Assembly: GCA_018819225.1 (NCBI GenBank) | Contig: JAHJQN010000004.1 | Coordinates: 194,813-258,812, forward strand | Direction: 5' to 3' | DNA from: Candidatus Micrarchaeota archaeon | Lineage (GTDB): Archaea; Micrarchaeota; Micrarchaeia; Norongarragalinales; SBBD01 | Length of the DNA: 64,000 nucleotides | Part shown: piece by piece, positions 1-41,446 of the stretch | How the letters are laid out: each line of letters opens with the position of its first letter | Numbering within the stretch: the first letter of the stretch is position 1 | Made by a program: the position numbers and the translations under genes | Notes under the pieces: generated by a model | The model's input: only the letters and a program-made list of their open reading frames with translations | Database searches by the model: none | What the model was told of the DNA's origin: nothing

Positions 1-423
1 TCGATTACTCCTAGTAATAACATCTTTTATCGTTCCCAATCGAACATTTAAATCGGCCTGTTTCCCTTCTCGAATGGCATCTTTGAATGCAATAACTCGC
101 GGATTTTCCATACCGTGATCTCGTAAGTGATCATGAATAGCGGTTAAAACGGAGGACACACGTTCTGACGGAATTCGTGTCAAATGACTTTGTTCTATTT
201 GTAGCAATAGTTGATCTTCAACCATTTTTCCATGAAGGGCGGTCGTAATATCTCTAAAAGTTGCAGATGGAAAAATTTTTCTCATTAGTTTGGTATGCGA
301 CTCTCCATTTCGTCCCAACATTACTATTGGTTCGGTTGGATGCACTATAAAAGTAATGTCTGAAGTCGGGGTCCGAATTAATCGACTGCTTTTCCGAACT
401 ATAATTTCTTCATTCCGATTCAT
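1..423 (-). CDS. hypothetical protein, N-terminal part only (gene continues beyond window start); low-GC
   Basis: Minus-strand reading frame from ATG at 423..421 (MNRNEEIIVRKSSRLIRTP...) runs open to position 1; AT-rich codon usage like neighbouring island genes; no recognisable motif. Confidence 0.4.
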   Translation of the reverse strand, partial: MNRNEEIIVRKSSRLIRTPTSDITFIVHPTEPIVMLGRNGESHTKLMRKIFPSATFRDITTALHGKMVEDQLLLQIEQSHLTRIPSERVSSVLTAIHDHLRDHGMENPRVIAFKDAIREGKQADLNVRLGTIKDVITRSNR

Positions 424-643
424 AATTCCGTTTCTTGTTAAGGGTATTTAAATCAGGCGCTGGGGATGGGAGCAGGAAGAAAAGTTCCGGTCCCTCTCGC
501 AAAAGGAAAGCCCCGGCGGGAACCGACCAAAAAGGTCAAAGCCCTCAATAAAACGACTCGGAAGCGGGAAAAAAAGGCTAAATGAACCTATTCAATAGAT
601 ATACAATAATCAGATCCGCACCATTATTCATTTAAAGCCCTTA

Positions 644-1864
644 ATGAGTATTAAGTTGATGTTAATTGAGCTTCGAATAAAGCCAGGTAAGTTAAAGCTA
701 GTTCGAATGATAAACAAAATTTCTAAAAAATGTCATTTATCAAGTCGAAAAATACACAGAATACCTCACATTACAATATACGGCCCTTTCAAAGGTCGTG
801 GTTCAAATATTCGAAGTATTAATCAGATTTTAGCTCAAATTGGATCAAAATATGGACCATTGGAATTCCAAGTAAAAGGTTTCGAGTGGATGCAGGGCGA
901 GCATGGAAAAGTCATTTACTTCAACATTATACCTTCACCAGATTTAATAAAAATTCAAAAAGAACTTGCGTTTGAATTAAGTACAATTACGCCTAGTAAT
1001 AAAGAATGGGATAAATTTGGAAAATATACATTTCATTCTACTTTAGCATACCGACTAACTGATTCAGAGTTTAAACGCGTTTGGTCTTACGTAAATAGTG
1101 TTCCAAATTTTAAAACTAAAGTATTGAGTTATTTTGGAATTATTAGTCCTGATCGGAAATTTAAAATTAATGATTTTCATTTTCCAATGACTGCGTTCCG
1201 AATTACATTCCTCAACGACTATAGCAAAATCATTTCAGAATATGATTTTGTTACTCATCATATTCTAAATCGTTATGAAGCATTAAACCCAAAAGAATGG
1301 TCTAAAACTTTATGGAAATATCGCATAAATCGCGGAATAGAATTGTCTAACAATATTTCTTCAAAATCCTCTAGCGGACCGTACATAATTAGCGATACTC
1401 ATTTTGGTCATGAAAATATTATCGAGTATTGTATTCGTCCGTTTTCGTCTATTCATGAAATGAATCGAGTACTTATTTCAAATTGGAATCGGATTGTCAA
1501 ACCTAATGATATTGTTTATTTCTTAGGCGATTTATCGTTTGGAAGAAGTAAAAAACCTCCGTCTTATTGGCTAAACCAACTAAATGGAGATATTAGATTT
1601 ATTAGGGGAAACCACGATGACTTAGTTTTGTTAGGGAAAAAACACGAATACATTGATTTTGAAGGGGAAAAAATACTATTAGTACATGATCCAAAAGAAA
1701 AACCAAAAAATTGGAGTGGATGGATTATACACGGTCACAATCATAATAATGATCTTTCACGATATCCTCTGGTAAATAATACGAATAAAACAATCAACGT
1801 TAGCAGTGAACTAATCAATTATTCCCCGATTTCTCTTAAATATTTACTTTCTTTTCGAAAATAG
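644..1864 (+). CDS. 2H phosphoesterase (LigT/2',3'-cyclic phosphodiesterase-like) fused to calcineurin-like metallophosphoesterase
   Basis: N-terminal half has two H-x-T/S-x motifs (HITIYGPF, HSTLAY) typical of 2H phosphoesterases; C-terminal half has MPP motifs DTHFGH, GDLSFGR, GNHDD; AT-rich. Confidence 0.7.
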   Translation: MSIKLMLIELRIKPGKLKLVRMINKISKKCHLSSRKIHRIPHITIYGPFKGRGSNIRSINQILAQIGSKYGPLEFQVKGFEWMQGEHGKVIYFNIIPSPDLIKIQKELAFELSTITPSNKEWDKFGKYTFHSTLAYRLTDSEFKRVWSYVNSVPNFKTKVLSYFGIISPDRKFKINDFHFPMTAFRITFLNDYSKIISEYDFVTHHILNRYEALNPKEWSKTLWKYRINRGIELSNNISSKSSSGPYIISDTHFGHENIIEYCIRPFSSIHEMNRVLISNWNRIVKPNDIVYFLGDLSFGRSKKPPSYWLNQLNGDIRFIRGNHDDLVLLGKKHEYIDFEGEKILLVHDPKEKPKNWSGWIIHGHNHNNDLSRYPLVNNTNKTINVSSELINYSPISLKYLLSFRK

Positions 1865-2138
1865 ACGGTATTCATTCTTCTTTTAAAGAAAATCTATCTA
1901 GCTGCCTTCAATAACAAATCGGTGTATGGGAAGATAATATTCGTCATTCCCATCAACAATCCATAAATTAACGATATAAACTCCTGGCCCATCCGTTAAA
2001 TAATCACCAATTCCTGCTTCGACTTCAAATAAACCCGAAGGATTCGCATTCCATTTTCTTGGATACATGTATCGGGCATCATCTAGAAAATGACCGGGTT
2101 CGATAATTGCGGTTACATAATTATTTTCTAACTTAAAT

Positions 2139-2537
2139 TCACCAGCCGAATTTAATCGGCTTCATAGAAAAACCAAACGGCGATACCCGTTTTCTACGTT
2201 TTTTTCTTTTCATTTTCTTTCTTGGTTTAATCGCTTCTCGGGCATGCCTTTGCATTCGTTGAAACTCAGCCCACGATTTCCTTCCCATGTTCTTGTTACA
2301 TTGATAGCAGAGAACAACCGTGTTCTTAATCGTGGTTTTGCCTCCAGTTGACCAAGCCCGTTTATGTCCAAATTGAGCGGCAGGGTAATCCAATCGTTTT
2401 CGACAATTTTGACATCTTTTTCCTTGTTGAGCCCAAACGATTTGTTTCTGATTCGTCGGAAGTGTTCTTTTGTTATCCCTCCTCGGATCATTAGCCCCCC
2501 ATATCATGCGTTCAAAATTTCGGTTAGTTCCATACAT
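2139..2537 (-). CDS. HNH endonuclease
   Basis: C-x2-C ... H ... N ... C-x2-C arrangement (CQNCRKRLD...HKRAWSTGG...NTVVLCYQCN), basic C-terminal tail. Confidence 0.75.
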   Translation of the reverse strand: MYGTNRNFERMIWGANDPRRDNKRTLPTNQKQIVWAQQGKRCQNCRKRLDYPAAQFGHKRAWSTGGKTTIKNTVVLCYQCNKNMGRKSWAEFQRMQRHAREAIKPRKKMKRKKRRKRVSPFGFSMKPIKFGW

Positions 2538-2563
2538 CTAAATCCCCCATTAAATCTTGATCG

Positions 2564-2860
2564 TTAGAATCTCCAGACTTCATAGCTTCGCTTGTGCTTC
2601 CTATAAGTCTTCCGTTGTAATTTTGAAAGACGTGCTCTACCCGATTTGACTTCTACTAGTTTTTTCTTTTTCCTTCCAGTACGCCAACTACGCTTTGAAA
2701 CCTCGTAGTCAGACCCCCGACCTGTTCTTTTAATACTATAGCCGTGTAGTCCATAACGGGTAATTGCCAGGTCTTCCGCCATCTTGCCTTTTGTTTTATT
2801 TCGAACTAAACGTGTACGTTTTGCTTCTCGCAATAATCCGCCAAGAAGACCCAATTCCAT
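2564..2860 (-). CDS. hypothetical small basic protein
   Basis: 98-aa Lys/Arg-rich ORF co-directional and 27 nt upstream of HNH gene; no motif recognised. Confidence 0.35.
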   Translation of the reverse strand: MELGLLGGLLREAKRTRLVRNKTKGKMAEDLAITRYGLHGYSIKRTGRGSDYEVSKRSWRTGRKKKKLVEVKSGRARLSKLQRKTYRKHKRSYEVWRF

Positions 2861-2979
2861 CTCCTAATGGCAAAGCGTTAAACTCCTTTTTTAAGGCATA
2901 TCCTACAAGAGAGTACAGGGACCTTTTTATTAGAATAAAAATATGAAAATCGATAGTGCACTTTAATAGTTGACGACAA

Positions 2980-3948
2980 ATGGAAGTATATGAAATAATG
3001 TCAACTCCGCCAATAACGGTTAGATTAACGGATAGTGTACATAAAATTCAAAAATTATTTTACAGGCATAAAATTGCTAGTATTTTTGTCGTTGAAAATG
3101 GAAGAGTTGAAGGGCTAGTTACAAGAAAGAACTTTTTTTCAAGTAAACATTTTCTTAGACACAATTCAACTGCAAAAAATGTAATGACAAGAAACGCATA
3201 TACAATTCATTCAACTGCCGGCGTAGATACTGCTTCGGATTTAATGATTCAATATGGTGTCAATAGTCTTGCTGTAATCAGAAGTGGAAAAATTGTAGGG
3301 GTAGTCACCCGATTTGACTTTAATAAACGCAAACGAGAGCATAATCCGCCAACCTACATTCAGTATACGCCAAATCCGCCATCAAACAATAAAAGTTTTG
3401 GTTTTTATATTTTTATAAGCATTATTTTATTGTATCTAGGCTACACTTTTATCTACCCCATTATTGAATTTAGTAATACTAGTTCAATAGAATTTCTAAT
3501 ACACCAAAAAATCAATTATGAACGCGGTAAATACAGACTTCCACATTTAATGTACGATAGTTCATTACAAAGAACTGCAGACAAGCATAGTATAGATATG
3601 GAAGAAAATAATTTCTTCGACCATATTAATAAACAAGGGAAAGATCCCGCTCAAAGACTCTACGAACAAGGATTCTCGTGTTCAAAACAATACGGTAACC
3701 TAATTTATTCAGGCGTTGGCGAAAATATTGCAAAAGAACCAATTTTTAGCCAAAGGGGATTTTTAGCCATTTTTCCATACGTTATTTGGAACGATAAAGA
3801 AAAAATTGCCTCGGCAACAGTGGAAGGATGGATGAAAAGCCCAAGTCATAGAGAAAATATCTTAACTGCTCATTATTCGTCTGAAGGAATTGGTGTTCAT
3901 AGAAGTACTTTTGGAGAGTATTTCTATATAACTCAAAACTTCTGTTAG
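2980..3948 (+). CDS. CBS-pair domain / transmembrane / CAP (SCP, PR-1-like) domain protein
   Basis: Two CBS-like repeats at N-terminus (VVENGRVEGLVTRKNF; VIRSGKIVGVVTRFDF), central hydrophobic helix (FGFYIFISIILLYLGYTFIYPII), C-terminal CAP signature (HRENILTAHYSSEGIGV...GEYFYITQNF). Confidence 0.65.
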   Translation: MEVYEIMSTPPITVRLTDSVHKIQKLFYRHKIASIFVVENGRVEGLVTRKNFFSSKHFLRHNSTAKNVMTRNAYTIHSTAGVDTASDLMIQYGVNSLAVIRSGKIVGVVTRFDFNKRKREHNPPTYIQYTPNPPSNNKSFGFYIFISIILLYLGYTFIYPIIEFSNTSSIEFLIHQKINYERGKYRLPHLMYDSSLQRTADKHSIDMEENNFFDHINKQGKDPAQRLYEQGFSCSKQYGNLIYSGVGENIAKEPIFSQRGFLAIFPYVIWNDKEKIASATVEGWMKSPSHRENILTAHYSSEGIGVHRSTFGEYFYITQNFC

Positions 3949-4032
3949 ACCGTTTTATATTGAGTAGTTAGGGCATTGTGATATCGTGTTCAAACCCGGC
4001 CTGCGGCATAGACAACGGTATACGGAAAAAAG

Positions 4033-5796: not shown

Positions 5797-6044
5797 GTAA
5801 CTACACCCCCTATTGGCTACGGACAAACAACATTTTTTAAGGAGTGGCTTTGGTCGATTTCGGTTTGTTCGAGCGCATAACGATTTCAAAGAGGCGAATC
5901 TCGTCGATGGCCAAATAGAGCAGGGCTTAAATAGGGGTTTGCGGTCAGGGCAAGCGGGTGCGAGGCCAAAAGCCAGCCGGAACCGGCTTGGGATAGTAGA
6001 TTATGAGGGAATTATGGCGGGGGGCTTCGCTACCGTGGGCTGAA

Positions 6045-6174
6045 AGCCCCCGGCGAGAATCGAACTCGCGACCTCCTGTTTTCTCGCTCTTGCTTTTTTG
6101 GTCGAGCTTTTCTTAAAGAAAAGGTCGGGTGGCAAGGTTACGAGACAGGCGCTCTTCCGCTGAGCTACGGAGGC
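6045..6174 (-). tRNA. tRNA-Thr(CGU) with ~57-nt intron at canonical 37/38 position
   Basis: Reverse complement reads GCCTCCG-TA-GCTCAGCGGAAGAGC-G-CCTGT-CTCGTA[intron]A-ACAGG-AGGTC-GCGAGTTCGATTCTCGC-CGGGGGC-T; acceptor, D, anticodon and T arms all pair; intron 3' region (GCAAGAGCGAG) pairs with anticodon-loop/exon (CTCG..CTTGC) as expected for BHB. Confidence 0.75.
6098..6129. repeat. palindromic T-rich hairpin motif copy 1 (TTGGTCGAGCTTTTCTT-AA-AGAAAAGGTCGGG), inside tRNA-Thr intron
   Basis: 8-9 bp stem CTTTTCTT/AAGAAAAG; same motif recurs at 6204-6240, 7584-7622, 7842-7882. Confidence 0.6.
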
Positions 6175-6203
6175 ATAAATGTTTTTTCAAATGCCCATTT
6201 CAT

Positions 6204-6240
6204 TTGGCGGAGCTTTTCTTTATAAAAGAAAAGGTCCGCG
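6204..6240. repeat. palindromic T-rich hairpin motif copy 2 (TTGGCGGAGCTTTTCTTTATAAAAGAAAAGGTCCGCG)
   Basis: Perfect 9-bp stem CTTTTCTTT/AAAGAAAAG extended by GCGGAC/GCTCCGC; lies between tRNA-Thr and a 21-nt partial copy of its 5' end. Confidence 0.6.
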
Positions 6241-6244
6241 CTTC

Positions 6245-6265
6245 CTTCCGCTGAGCTACGGAGGC
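6245..6265 (-). repeat. 21-nt partial duplicate of tRNA-Thr 5' end (acceptor + D-stem/loop)
   Basis: cttccgctgagctacggaggc identical to 6154-6174. Confidence 0.7.
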
Positions 6266-6304
6266 AACTTTATTTTTTATGAACCGTTTGTTTTAAATGG
6301 CAAT

Positions 6305-6353
6305 GGGGGGTAGGGGCGACCCGCGTAAGGGGAACTCCCCTTGGAGGGGGTCC
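6305..6353 (+). ncRNA. GC-rich structured element copy 1 (GGGGGGTAGGGGCGACCCGCGTAAGGGGAACTCCCCTTGGAGGGGGTCC)
   Basis: Two hairpins (GGG-GCGA-CCC GNRA-like; AAGGGGA-AC-TCCCCTT); second copy at 48061-48108 with two compensatory base-pair changes in the second stem. Confidence 0.45.
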
Positions 6354-6520
6354 TGGGGTGCGGAGGCATTCTGACAACAAAATGCGCATTGTTTATGGAC
6401 GGCTTTTGTTTAAAAAAACGTTGGATACTGGATCCGGGGATGCAACCAGACATTTAATAATATTCAGGCGCTCTTTTCAATCGTATTTCACGAACGAAAT
6501 CAAGGGAGGCTGATAAACGG

Positions 6521-7105
6521 ATGCCACACAAATGCGTCAAATGCGGAAAATTGTATCCGAACATGGCGCCAGAGCTCATGAAAGGCTGCGAATGCACGTC
6601 CCGCATCTTCTTGTTCTTGCGCGAAAGCCAAGTCAGCGTCAAGGAGACCATGGAGTTGCTGCAGGAAGAGAGCCAGAAGCTCGTGGAAGACACGAAAGCC
6701 ATTCAAGAACTCGCCGAAGCCACGCCCATCACCATAGAAAAAATCGAGCTGCCTTCCGTACCCGTCAAGTCCATGGTGGAACAACAGGACGTGCACGGCA
6801 AGCCCCACGTCATTCGAGTACAAGAAAAGAAGGATCCTGAAAAAGCCGTGGATGAAATCGAGGAAGCGGACATGGAATCCGATCAAGAAGATGACACGGA
6901 CGGGCTCGTGGACGGGGACATGGAGAAAACCGTTTTACCCGTTGACGCGGACGGAGAACCCGTTGAAAACATCACCATCCTGGAAAAGGGATCGTACGAG
7001 CTCAACATCGAGTCACTCATGGCGGGTAACCCGCTCGTCATCCGAACCGAACGCGGAATATTCTACATACGCATTCCGACGCCCGTCAACCAAAGGAATC
7101 GGTAA
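6521..7105 (+). CDS. Zn-ribbon domain protein with acidic C-terminal region
   Basis: N-terminal C-x2-C ... C-x-C (HKCVKCGKLY...GCEC), acidic low-complexity middle; ends overlapping next gene start (ATGG). Confidence 0.5.
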   Translation: MPHKCVKCGKLYPNMAPELMKGCECTSRIFLFLRESQVSVKETMELLQEESQKLVEDTKAIQELAEATPITIEKIELPSVPVKSMVEQQDVHGKPHVIRVQEKKDPEKAVDEIEEADMESDQEDDTDGLVDGDMEKTVLPVDADGEPVENITILEKGSYELNIESLMAGNPLVIRTERGIFYIRIPTPVNQRNR

Positions 7106-7401
7106 TGGCTATTAACGAGATCGCATCCAAACCGGCTATCGACGTAGCGGAAAGCGTGGCGTTTTCCGGAGCGGACTTGATCATCATCGCCGGAGTCGTC
7201 ATTATTCTGGCACTCATCGTCCTCTTTATTTTCCGGCGGTTTCTCATCAACTCCGTCATCGGAATCATCGCCCTCATCGTACTGAATTATGCGGGCGTAG
7301 AGATTCCGTTGAACGTGGCCACCATTGTCGTCACCGCGATTTTGGGTTTAGTGGGCGTGGCGCTGCTCATCATCCTCAAGCTATCGGGAATCGCCTTTTA
7401 A
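7105..7401 (+). CDS. small integral membrane protein (3 predicted TM helices)
   Basis: 98-aa hydrophobic ORF translationally coupled to upstream gene. Confidence 0.5.
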   Translation: MAINEIASKPAIDVAESVAFSGADLIIIAGVVIILALIVLFIFRRFLINSVIGIIALIVLNYAGVEIPLNVATIVVTAILGLVGVALLIILKLSGIAF

Positions 7402-7433
7402 TGGTTCCCGGGACTAATTTTGTTTCCAGGCAA

Positions 7434-7557
7434 GGGCCCGTAAGAGAAACCATCTCCGGGACGCTCAGCTTGGATAGAGCGATTGCCTCCTAATCACTCG
7501 CGGATTGCAAGTGGAGGGGAAAGCAATAGGTCGTGGGTTCGAATCCCACCGGGCCCG
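7434..7557 (+). tRNA. tRNA-Arg(CCU) with ~29-nt anticodon-loop intron and an unusual 20-nt insert between acceptor 5' strand and D stem
   Basis: GGGCCCG...[20 nt]...GCTC-AGCTTGGATA-GAGC-G-ATTGC-CTCCTA[intron]A-GCAAT-AGGTC-GTGGGTTCGAATCCCAC-CGGGCCC-G; acceptor strands complementary; canonical T loop. Confidence 0.6.
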
Positions 7558-7583
7558 CTTAATGCCAGTTCCCGTGGTTTCAT

Positions 7584-7634
7584 TGGTCGAGTTTCCTTCC
7601 CAAGAAAGGTCGTTCAGAATCCCGACCGGGCCCG
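7584..7634 (+). repeat. hairpin motif copy 3 plus degenerate partial copy of tRNA-Arg 3' end (GGTCGTTCAGAATCCCGACCGGGCCCG)
   Basis: TTGGTCGAGTTTCCTTCCCAAGAAAGGTCG followed by T-arm-like + acceptor-3'-like sequence sharing ACCGGGCCCG with tRNA end at 7547-7556. Confidence 0.55.
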
Positions 7635-7673
7635 TATATTAATTAAACTTGTTTTCCTGCAACCTATACCATT

Positions 7674-7790
7674 GCGGAGGTCGCATAGTGGCTATTGCGG
7701 CAGCCTGCTATCTTTTTGCAGCGAAGGCTGCGGAAGGTTGGAAAGCTGTTGGCGCTTCGCGCCTCGTGGGTTCGAGTCCCACCCTCCGCG
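7674..7790 (+). tRNA. tRNA-Ser(GCU), class II with long variable arm and ~16-nt intron
   Basis: GCGGAGG-TC-GCAT-AGTGGCTA-TTGC-G-GCAGC-CTGCTA[intron]G-GCTGC-variable arm (GGCGC-TTC-GCGCC)-GTGGGTTCGAGTCCCAC-CCTCCGC-G. Confidence 0.75.
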
Positions 7791-7841
7791 CTCAATAATG
7801 CGGTCGTTGGATACCATGGAACATATGGGTAACCGGTTTCT

Positions 7842-7897
7842 TTGGTCGAGCTTTCTTTACAAAGAAAGGTCGTTCGGAATCCTTACCCTCCGCGCTA
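7842..7897 (+). repeat. hairpin motif copy 4 plus degenerate partial copy of tRNA-Ser 3' end (GGTCGTTCGGAATCCTTACCCTCCGCGCT)
   Basis: TTGGTCGAGCTTTCTTTACAAAGAAAGGTCG (8-bp stem) then sequence sharing ACCCTCCGCGCT with tRNA-Ser 3' end. Confidence 0.55.
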
Positions 7898-40850: not shown

Positions 40851-41446
40851 ACCATGGCGTGCGCATTGCTATCTCGGGACTCGCCGGTTGTGGTAATACG
40901 ACCGCGTGCAAGAATGTCGCTAAAACCTTGAAATTGAAGGTCGTAAACTTCACGCTCCGAAATCTCGCGGAAGAAATGGGCATGACGCTAGATGAAATAC
41001 TGGATAAACGCAAAGACGACCCCAAATACGATTACCTGCTCGACCGAAAACAGATCAGCCTCGTTTCATCGGAAGACGACACGATTCTGGGAAGCCGGCT
41101 ATCCAGCTGGCTCATCTACGCGGACTTGAAAGTATGGTTGGATGCGTCCCTGCGTGAACGAGCCGCCCGCATCGTGGAACGGGAAGAACGCGAGTATTAC
41201 GAAGTGCTGGTAGAAACCAAGAAACGGGACGAGGAAGACATTGCCACGTACAAAAAGCTATATGGAATCGACATCATGAAACACGATGAAATCGATCTCA
41301 CGATCAACACGGAACGGTTTGATGCCAACGAGGTCGCGCAAATCATCATCAACACGGTACGCGTTCTCGAGGCCCGCAAGCCCAAGCACAACCGATACAC
41401 GCAACGCATCATGGACACCATCAACAAAAAAATCGGTAGAAGTTAG
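40847..41446 (+). CDS. cmk: cytidylate kinase (archaeal type)
   Basis: P-loop ISGLAGCGNTT; position after L34e as in many archaea. Confidence 0.8.
   Translation: MNHGVRIAISGLAGCGNTTACKNVAKTLKLKVVNFTLRNLAEEMGMTLDEILDKRKDDPKYDYLLDRKQISLVSSEDDTILGSRLSSWLIYADLKVWLDASLRERAARIVEREEREYYEVLVETKKRDEEDIATYKKLYGIDIMKHDEIDLTINTERFDANEVAQIIINTVRVLEARKPKHNRYTQRIMDTINKKIGRS

Follow-up and report, generated by a model that had tools for sequence, protein, structure and literature searches.

The origin of non-canonical introns in archaeal tRNA genes, and of split and fragmented tRNAs, is a long-standing question, and existing models rest on few cases with kilobase-sized elements. Transposition of tRNA introns was reportedly described in the Thermoproteales by Fujishima et al. 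in 2010. Repetitive extragenic palindromic (REP) sequences have, to our knowledge, been described in Proteobacteria and not in DPANN archaea. At the Caldiarchaeum tRNA-Thr gene, a 1.8-kb recombinase-bearing insert splits a 5' tRNA fragment from the intron-containing gene, and insertion of mobile elements has been proposed as a route to intron gain and scattered tRNA fragments (Sugahara et al. 2012, PMC3293823). Here, we report a much shorter repeat found at three tRNA genes in 64,000 nucleotides of a Candidatus Micrarchaeota archaeon (GenBank assembly GCA_018819225.1, contig JAHJQN010000004.1, positions 194,813 to 258,812, forward strand), a stretch called the window below. The repeat, named the GGTCGAG hairpin, is a small non-coding imperfect palindrome of 26-40 nt, and it is probably a non-autonomous mobile hairpin element of the kind of MITEs (miniature inverted-repeat transposable elements) or REPs. 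No description of it was found in the literature searched (including searches for the sequence string, archaeal MITEs and DPANN tRNA introns).

The hairpin has an invariant base, (T)YTT-TTGGTCGAGCTTT ... AAAGGTCG with a G.G mismatch, and an apex that is free in sequence and length yet paired, with a composition that runs from AT-rich in DPANN archaea to GC-rich (GCCGCCGAAGGCGGG and similar). A pattern scan (TTGGTCGAGYTT-N(6-20)-AAAGGTCG) over metagenomes and GTDB genomes, the counts of which are lower bounds, gave at least 207 distinct matches; at least 162 were true hairpins, and the remainder were chance matches in unrelated bacteria. Hairpin-bearing contigs number in the hundreds and come from DPANN archaea, high-GC Gaiellales actinobacteria and some Clostridia. 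Judged by their record titles, archaeal hosts comprise Woesearchaeota, Nanoarchaeota/Nanobdellati, Micrarchaeota/Norongarragalinales, Parvarchaeota, Iainarchaeum, Altiarchaeota and unclassified archaeal metagenome-assembled genomes (MAGs), while about 17 loci among the matches listed belong to Gaiellales/Actinomycetota (Gaiellaceae/Gaiellales) and 7 to Clostridia (Oscillospiraceae/Clostridia). Several copies occur per MAG, identical copies lie at unrelated loci (e.g., L152 and L179), and some copies are arrayed in tandem, with a unit of hairpin and spacer that repeats every 47, 77 or 117 nt. The four copies that the original prediction had picked out from the letters of the window thus have many relatives outside it, and the arrangement at tRNA-Arg is kept in another Micrarchaeota genome.

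Across 42 archaeal copies from outside the window, 96.4% of stem cells are paired (45-62% in slid stem controls), and 41 stem cells carry double changes against 10.9 in shuffles, none of 500 shuffles reaching the observed number. The terminal inverted-repeat arms (GGTCGAGCTTT / AAAGGTCG) are invariant and the spacing between them varies, which argues against a double-stranded dimeric binding site and favours recognition of a folded single strand (DNA or RNA). A coding constraint on the hairpin was ruled out, as its reading frame varies between loci.

Longer arrangements of the hairpin were also seen. Inverted doublets occur in L014, L092, L119, L083 and L060, each made of one copy in reverse complement and, 11-50 nt further on, another in forward orientation, so that their TTGG ends point inward; some copies are fully symmetric (TTGATCGACC...GGTCGATCAA), which recalls REPIN doublets. 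In Oscillospiraceae/Clostridiales MAGs (L141, L169, L173, L196, L205, L212 and L239), the hairpin is the first module of a longer, multi-hairpin repeat (...AAAGTTT-hairpin-CGGGTCGAGGGCAGCGCCCTCGTCGCTCTCCGCAGAGAGCGAAA...) that is intergenic and present at many loci per genome.

For the window, the element proper was delimited from TTGG to GGTCG, and a covariance model (R1) was built from 42 archaeal copies on other contigs, with zero window sequence in the training set. Searched with R1 with filters off, the 64-kb window returned exactly four copies (c1 to c4), all on the + strand (Table 1), at 54.8 bits (c4), 51.9 bits (c1), 26.4 bits (c2) and 20.4 bits (c3), with E values from 1.7e-11 to 4e-3 (c3, E = 0.004). 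The original prediction of four plus-strand hairpins next to or inside tRNA genes was therefore upheld, with refined coordinates, by a model made from copies elsewhere. The next-best R1 match (41014-41053, - strand, 16.5 bits) was rejected as a fifth copy and judged to be due to chance because it lies within an open reading frame (ORF) and has no stem. The strict hairpin pattern had no match in 100 shuffles.

Three of the window copies fold significantly more stably than shuffles (z = -2.6 for c1, -4.2 for c2 and -3.4 for c4), whereas c3, already singled out in the original prediction as having the weaker stem, does not (z = +0.25). The c2 copy (-19.7 kcal/mol; inverted repeat I6, with 15-nt arms that are 93% complementary) carries a compensatory C-G to G-C change in its lower stem and a TATA-like loop (TTTATAAAA), and c4 was detected as inverted repeat I16 in the repeat scan. 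In all four copies, GAGC faces GGTC with the G.G mismatch, and the 5' TTGG is unpaired and preceded by T-rich sequence. Because the palindrome is imperfect in both respects, the strand of the hairpin can be defined; minus-strand R1 matches are restricted to the symmetric apex and reach 12-16 bits. Each copy lies within 90 nt of one of the three tRNA genes, with none in the remaining 62 kb. The tRNA genes with 100-nt margins occupy about 1.5% of the window, and the placement of all four copies there is far beyond chance. In the predicted cloverleaf fold of the tRNA-Thr precursor, c1 forms a separate arm atop the intron helix CUUGC/GCAAG. Against Rfam, the window yields tRNA models only, and the hairpins have no match even at E <= 10; one Gaiellales copy has none either.

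The tRNA association extends to the archaeal copies at large. Each hairpin was removed in silico along with 0-60 nt of left flank and 0-12 nt of right flank, and ARAGORN was run on the result. Of the roughly 93 archaeal copies, 20 then gave a junction-spanning tRNA, compared with 1 and 2 for two shifted controls; about 20% of archaeal copies interrupt or abut tRNA genes (1-2% in controls). The restored junctions lie at the canonical position (about 37/38), in the T-loop and in the D-loop/D-arm. A mirrored deletion, with the extra sequence removed on the right, recovered no further tRNAs; the GGTCG end therefore joins the exon or duplicate directly, with variable additional sequence on the T-rich side. 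In 11 of 99 copies a T-loop motif directly borders the hairpin on its right (none of 99 did so when a control offset was used), and on several archaeal contigs (L020/L153, L143 and L184) the last G of the hairpin is nucleotide 1 of the tRNA. Both orientations to the host tRNA occur (L047 sense; c1, L037, L094, L231 and others antisense), with intron-type copies mostly antisense, and archaeal copies have no consistent orientation to neighbouring protein genes.

Direct repeats flank a significant fraction of the hairpins. For each copy, 110 nt on the left was aligned with 90 nt on the right, with the threshold set at the 99th percentile of mismatched-flank controls. This threshold was exceeded by 16% of hairpin copies and by 4% of the non-hairpin chance matches (1% by controls), the repeats being 15-50 nt long and locally derived. 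Clean examples are L059 (36/36 nt; tRNA-Lys 3' end and trailer), L203 (32/33), L131 (38/38) and L129 (24/25; tRNA-Thr 5' end). The right copy of the repeat begins 0-7 nt past GGTCG, and at the cleanest loci 0-7 nt separates the end of the left copy from the conserved T-rich left end (L059, 36-41 nt; L203, 33; L197, 49). Repeated sequences include tRNA 3' ends with their trailers, tRNA 5' ends with their leaders, the last codons and stop of protein genes (L131, L203, L219, L167 and L197) and, at L103, a ribosome-binding site with the first codons of a gene. A target/template pair of a diversity-generating retroelement was rejected as a source of the repeats, because their differences are not adenine-specific and they are too short. 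Small indels in the T- and D-loops of the tRNA fragments were likewise rejected as scars of reverse transcription, the junctions being heterogeneous and c3 and c4 sharing changes.

All three tRNA genes that Rfam finds in the window lie at 6.0-7.9 kb, and no other tRNA was found. ARAGORN finds none of the three by default and finds tRNA-Thr and tRNA-Ser when introns are allowed. The tRNA-Arg(CCU) gene begins at 7434 rather than at 7458: GGGCCCG at 7434-7440 pairs with CGGGCCC at 7550-7556 to form the acceptor stem. The Rfam call starts at 7458, with a mismatched acceptor stem, because a 20-nt non-canonical intron follows position 9. L002 and L003 share this intron, which L004 and L005 lack.

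The c2, c3 and c4 hairpins are each abutted on the right (+ strand) by a degenerate duplicate of the adjacent tRNA end, so that in every case the intact gene stands to the left of the hairpin and the tRNA fragment to its right (Table 1). The original prediction was right about the tRNA genes beside the hairpins but had passed over these three duplicates. The tRNA-Thr 5' duplicate corresponds to repeat D3 (6154-6187 versus 6245-6278, 85% over 34 nt) and the tRNA-Arg 3' duplicate to repeat D20 (7545-7557 versus 7622-7634, 92%). The hairpin-proximal part of the tRNA-Ser duplicate is closer to the c3 fragment than to tRNA-Ser itself, and the c3 and c4 regions (repeat D2; 7592-7627 versus 7852-7887, 83%) share derived changes, which are most simply explained by local gene conversion between very similar neighbouring T-arm regions (repeat D5). 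We considered the fragments downstream of c3 and c4 as functional alternative 3' exons and rejected this, since the spliced T-stems would mismatch (CCCGAC and CCTTAC); these are pseudo-fragments. The 3' trailer of tRNA-Thr and the gene's 3' acceptor/T-stem region form the paired arms of a separate 17-nt inverted repeat (6011-6027 / 6044-6060, 82% complementary).

Table 1. Hairpin copies, host tRNA genes and duplicated tRNA ends in the window (positions from its first nucleotide)
Feature	Position	Strand	Description
c1 hairpin	6098-6127	+	TTGGTCGAGCTTTTCTTAAAGAAAAGGTCG; in the canonical (37/38) intron of tRNA-Thr(CGU), at its tip; antisense to the tRNA
c2 hairpin	6204-6239	+	TTGGCGGAGC...GGTCCGC; 30 nt upstream of the tRNA-Thr 5' end
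c3 hairpin	7583-7612	+	Degenerate, weak stem; 26 nt downstream of tRNA-Arg(CCU), sense to the tRNA
c4 hairpin	7842-7872	+	Best copy; 52 nt downstream of tRNA-Ser, sense to the tRNA
tRNA-Thr(CGU)	6045-6174	-	Rfam (54.2 bits) and ARAGORN -i; canonical intron of 58-60 nt; host of c1
tRNA-Arg(CCU)	7434-7557	+	Exon 1 at 7434-7442, non-canonical intron at 7443-7462, then canonical intron; intact 3' end at 7557
tRNA-Ser	7674-7790	+	Rfam and ARAGORN -i; intron-bearing, intact; c4 and 3'-end duplicate downstream
tRNA-Thr 5' duplicate	6240-6265	-	tRNA positions 1 to ~25, GCCTCCGTAGCTCAGCGGAAG-GA-AGC; abuts c2; weak extension into the upstream flank to 6278
tRNA-Arg 3' duplicate	7613-7634	+	T-loop to 3' end, TTCAGAATCCCGACCGGGCCCG (real end, TTCGAATCCCACCGGGCCCG); abuts c3
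tRNA-Ser 3' duplicate	7873-7894	+	T-loop to 3' end, TTCGGAATCCTTACCCTCCGCG; abuts c4

The gene order of the cluster (Thr / OapC / BofA-like / Arg / Ser / LPG-synthase / AtpD / TatD / AtpA) is kept on other Micrarchaeota contigs. In L004, from another Micrarchaeota MAG (OapC 45% identical), tRNA-Arg is followed by a related hairpin (CACCTTTTCTTCGCGAAGAAAAGGGG); 11 nt beyond it, the 3' end of the L004 tRNA-Arg itself is repeated exactly over 17 nt, with a T-stem unlike that of the window. In L129, from the same MAG as L004, a canonical hairpin and then a 21-nt exact 5'-end copy lie upstream of tRNA-Thr(GGU), a layout like that of c2. The L003 tRNA-Arg(CCU) gene (1613-1759) has a 40-nt T-loop intron (GGGTTCGAA / TCCCACCGGGCCCG) besides two other introns, and downstream of the L003 tRNA-Ser gene, both a hairpin-like sequence and a copy of the 3' end are present in decayed form. 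The hairpin is missing from the tRNA-Thr(CGU) introns of L004 and L002, and the L005 gene is intronless. By these comparisons, the hairpin is present, absent or decayed at orthologous sites.

A second conserved hairpin, GC-rich and with no Rfam match, lies at 6300-6369 of the window (GGGG(G/A)(T)AGGGGCGAC(C/A)CGCGT(A)(A)GGGG...CCCC..GAGG(G/T)GTC) and recurs in L004 (9815-9890), L129 (~1090-1160), L005 (9860-9915) and L002 (6505-6565). After it, the window, L004, L129 and L005 carry the tRNA-Thr 5' end a third time (window 6353-6369, CTGGGGTGCGGAGGC); the L002 example lies downstream of tRNA-Arg on a contig that stops before further sequence. This second hairpin could be a conserved leader structure or a further insertion of the GGTCGAG type, but of older date.

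Taken together, the data make it probable that the GGTCGAG hairpin is a non-autonomous MITE/REP-like mobile element. The suggestion of a small MITE-like mobile hairpin in the original prediction gains from the dispersed multi-copy family, the flanking repeats, the presence and absence at orthologous sites and the identical copies at unrelated loci; the fixed short duplication of a MITE is the part that fails. An enzyme encoded elsewhere would presumably recognise the hairpin as a folded single strand, and the element would move as DNA. The flanking repeats would be target duplications made at insertion, each copying a long target stretch (~25-50 nt, more for old copies). In compact DPANN genomes, copies would persist where they are harmless, so that tolerance rather than function would set their locations. 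Harmless sites would include tRNA introns and loops, from which splicing would remove the hairpin (c1, in a pre-existing intron), and the last 20-30 nt of a gene, where insertion would leave the intact gene to one side of the hairpin and, across from it, a terminal fragment undergoing decay, as may have happened at the Thr 5' end (c2), the Arg 3' end (c3) and the Ser 3' end (c4). Insertion near an end with a long duplication would account for tRNA fragments of no more than about 26 nt, for the co-duplicated flank and for the fact that only end-proximal or intronic insertions are seen. Loss of the inner duplicate would turn a locus of the c2, c3 or c4 type into a tRNA gene with a D-arm or T-loop intron, and the L003 tRNA-Arg gene shows the T-loop-intron state. 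Once in place, the loop of c2 (TTTATAAAA) could possibly serve as a TATA box for tRNA-Thr.

A number of observations weigh against a mobile element. No direct repeat is detectable at 84% of copies. The repeats at protein-gene ends (L219, L167, L149 and L197) differ almost solely by synonymous changes, including multi-nucleotide ones (6 of 6 synonymous in L219; TTG>CTA, CGT>AGG and TTA>TTG in L167; TAG>TGA was also seen), a pattern that is unexpected for neutral decay of a fresh duplicate and that implies either recombination reaching as far as the hairpin, by which alleles were later replaced, or the bringing together of homologous ends that belonged to diverged lineages. Variable repeats of 25-50 nt are not accounted for by any well-known mechanism of transposition in prokaryotes. 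The 6 kb to either side of the cluster and the surroundings of three tandem arrays contained no gene for a transposase, integrase or reverse transcriptase (whole genomes were not searched), and no pair of empty and filled alleles at near-identical sequence was obtained. The layout of hairpin and tRNA fragment at Arg and Thr is common to Micrarchaeota with OapC only ~45% identical, which hints at retention by selection or gene conversion.

The Gaiellales copies add to these objections. Of 63 copies, 55 are in sense orientation no more than 20 nt from a start codon, and 43 of the 63 end, in sense, within 2 nt of the start codon (ATG or GTG), a placement that looks like that of a selected element of the 5' untranslated region or of a very specific insertion site. 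These loci (e.g., L031, L071, L073, L085, L120 and L152) have a GC-rich apex with a second G.G mismatch and lie between the genes of housekeeping operons, before S8, L20, dnaX and cmk. About 40 nt upstream there is a locus-specific hairpin that starts at the previous stop codon, and a short upstream ORF often reads through the GGTCGAG hairpin to an overlapping ATGA or GTGA. CUGAUGA-like boxes upstream of these copies were considered as part of a hammerhead-like ribozyme, and this was rejected, as the order of core elements does not fit.

It is on such placement that an alternative can be built, namely that the hairpin is a functional motif of the host, a protein- or RNA-binding site on transcripts or single-stranded DNA, kept by selection rather than by selfish spread, which would mark tRNA ends, leaders and introns in archaea for termination, processing or stabilisation and would control translation starts in Gaiellales. 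A 14+9-nt base that is invariant over organisms of 28-74% GC and two domains, the strong stem covariation, the sense copies close to Gaiellales start codons, the layout kept at tRNA-Arg and tRNA-Thr of distant Micrarchaeota and the last hairpin G that doubles as tRNA nucleotide 1 would all suit it, and the T-runs in or before c3 and c4 could terminate archaeal RNA polymerase. We nevertheless regard it as unlikely. The hairpin stands in both orientations to tRNAs, so the RNA would differ between copies; its contexts are mixed (three intron loop positions, leaders, trailers, protein-gene ends and tandem arrays); in archaea it follows no orientation rule to neighbouring protein genes; orthologous introns lack it and c3 no longer folds; and a binding-site model does not predict the flanking duplications. 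The same reasoning disfavours the RNA-processing signal of the original prediction, because varying orientation changes what is transcribed (a G.G or a C.C mismatch) and because the hairpin is also found beside protein genes and in bacteria. The bidirectional oligo-T terminator, likewise offered there, cannot explain the copy in an intron, and a scan for bacterial-type terminators called none of the four copies, in which an A-run follows the stem; as a side effect, the T-runs of c3 and c4 could possibly help to end transcription after tRNA-Arg and tRNA-Ser. Reading the sense copies as terminators was rejected, as the orientation to protein genes does not support it and sense copies also lie directly before tRNA 5' ends.

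That the family consists of mobile archaeal tRNA introns, spreading by RNA or by recombination between tRNA genes, as reportedly proposed for the Thermoproteales, and leaving the duplicates as intermediates of intron gain or loss, is more improbable still. Copies within tRNA introns are indeed numerous, at canonical as well as non-canonical positions; where the tRNA-Arg genes of the window and L004 have a hairpin and a 3'-exon copy, that of L003 has a T-loop intron; and deletion of the inner duplicate would give a D-arm or T-loop intron from c2 to c4. Yet the hairpin sits at the intron tip and is not the bulge-helix-bulge splice motif (the junction helices of tRNA-Thr come from other intron sequence), antisense copies occur as well as sense copies, and the family is also present at protein-gene ends and in bacteria, which lack the tRNA splicing endonuclease. 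Least probable, and very unlikely, are scars of the attL/attR type left by integrase-mediated larger elements, since mostly deleted, with the hairpin as a retained terminus. Direct repeats of the 3' part of a tRNA from the T-loop onward are a classical signature of integrative elements, and in an att-site test a direct repeat of part of the tRNA was present on both sides of the insert (D3, D20 and other loci). A low-GC block (35-37%) with HNH and VRR-NUC nucleases adjoins tRNA-Thr, and the tRNA-Thr 5' fragment of Caldiarchaeum beside its recombinase-bearing insert (PMC3293823) is comparable. The insert, however, measures only 30-90 nt at every one of more than 20 independent loci (with 60-90 nt counted between the repeats in the window and 30-100 nt elsewhere), none of them with an integrase; the repeats differ per locus, so a common attP cannot explain them; and the same hairpin occurs without repeats inside introns and is nearly absent from viral contigs (2 matches among 2.9 million). 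A recombination site, also raised in the original prediction, may be akin to a mobile element, the reading that we prefer.

The surroundings of the cluster have features of their own. The OapC gene (Pfam, origin-associated protein; 6521-7105) adjoins the tRNA genes and encodes a Zn-ribbon protein with homologues in Micrarchaeota, and the cumulative GC skew bottoms out at about 2-6 kb, then climbs steadily as far as 24 kb. A replication origin may conceivably lie nearby and could relate to the uniform strand of the four hairpins. Prompted by the OapC neighbour and the skew minimum, we considered replication-origin (ORB) repeats and rejected them, as copies of the motif are spread over tRNA genes and gene ends on hundreds of contigs, with variable spacing between the arms. 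The low-GC block spans window positions 1-4000 (35-37% GC versus ~50% elsewhere), about 2 kb toward the 3' side of tRNA-Thr. It codes for a LigT-type 2'-5' RNA ligase-metallophosphoesterase fusion, an HNH endonuclease, a weak VRR-NUC-like protein and a CBS-CAP protein, with no integrase seen there, and may be a foreign island.

More tentatively, and with rather more doubt than belief, the GGTCGAG hairpin could be a new cross-domain mobile element with a fixed 3' end (GGTCG), a ragged 5' side, long variable target duplications and a preference for tRNA loops, and a still-active source of non-canonical introns in DPANN archaea. If so, one insertion followed by loss of a segment could give an intact tRNA gene plus a fragment, a D-arm, anticodon- or T-loop intron, or potentially a split tRNA, and the polarity and variable duplications would fit target-primed, reverse-transcriptase-like or otherwise novel insertion chemistry. 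A hairpin of 30-40 nt seen in each state (in canonical, T-loop and D-loop introns, beside duplicated tRNA ends and absent in orthologs) offers a testable series of intermediates across hundreds of DPANN genomes. The identical base in DPANN archaea and Gaiellales could point to transfer between domains in groundwater communities. In practice, default finders overlook tRNAs in such genomes or set their ends wrongly because of these insertions and extra fragments, and the motif is a handy marker for DPANN contigs.

Several known systems share features with the hairpin. Integron attC sites resemble it in architecture only (an imperfect conserved base, a variable apex, strand-specific recognition and an intergenic position); the hairpin has no attC cores (RYYYAAC/GTTRRRY), no integron integrase and no cassette arrays, and its neighbours are housekeeping genes. 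The T-runs of c3 and c4 (TTTCTTT and GCTTTCTTT) shortly past tRNA 3' ends resemble archaeal oligo-T terminators, which need neither the 14+9-nt base nor a duplicate of the tRNA end and would be harmful in an intron (c1) or a leader (c2). The Caldiarchaeum locus has the same extra tRNA-Thr 5' fragment upstream with inserted DNA between, but the hairpin, at 30-40 nt, is fifty times smaller and occurs at three loop positions and both tRNA ends in many phyla.

Closer still are REPs and REPINs (mobilised by RAYT, of the Y1/HUH type) and the ends of IS200/IS605 elements, which, like the hairpin, are imperfect palindromes 20-40 nt in length that combine a conserved mismatch with a conserved 5' extension left unpaired, and which share with it an extragenic position, high copy number, strand-specific asymmetry, probable recognition as a folded single strand and inverted doublets (as at L014, L092 and L119). 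They make no target duplication, whereas repeats flanking the hairpin are significantly enriched; the preference for tRNA loops and introns is peculiar to the hairpin, and no RAYT/TnpA gene was identified at the loci examined (whole genomes were not searched). From MITEs the hairpin differs in its far smaller size (26-40 nt, in effect two terminal repeats back to back), an interior selected to pair, an asymmetric palindrome (fixed G.G mismatch and unpaired TTGG), and variable repeats of 15-50 nt where known MITE families have a fixed 2-9 bp. No parent insertion sequence was seen in the 12 kb around the cluster or beside three arrays (whole genomes were not searched). Like MITEs, it is short, non-coding, multi-copy and mostly intergenic, has inverted-repeat ends that form a hairpin, is flanked by direct repeats of the target and appears to be non-autonomous. 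The GGTCGAG hairpin would work most like a MITE or REP.

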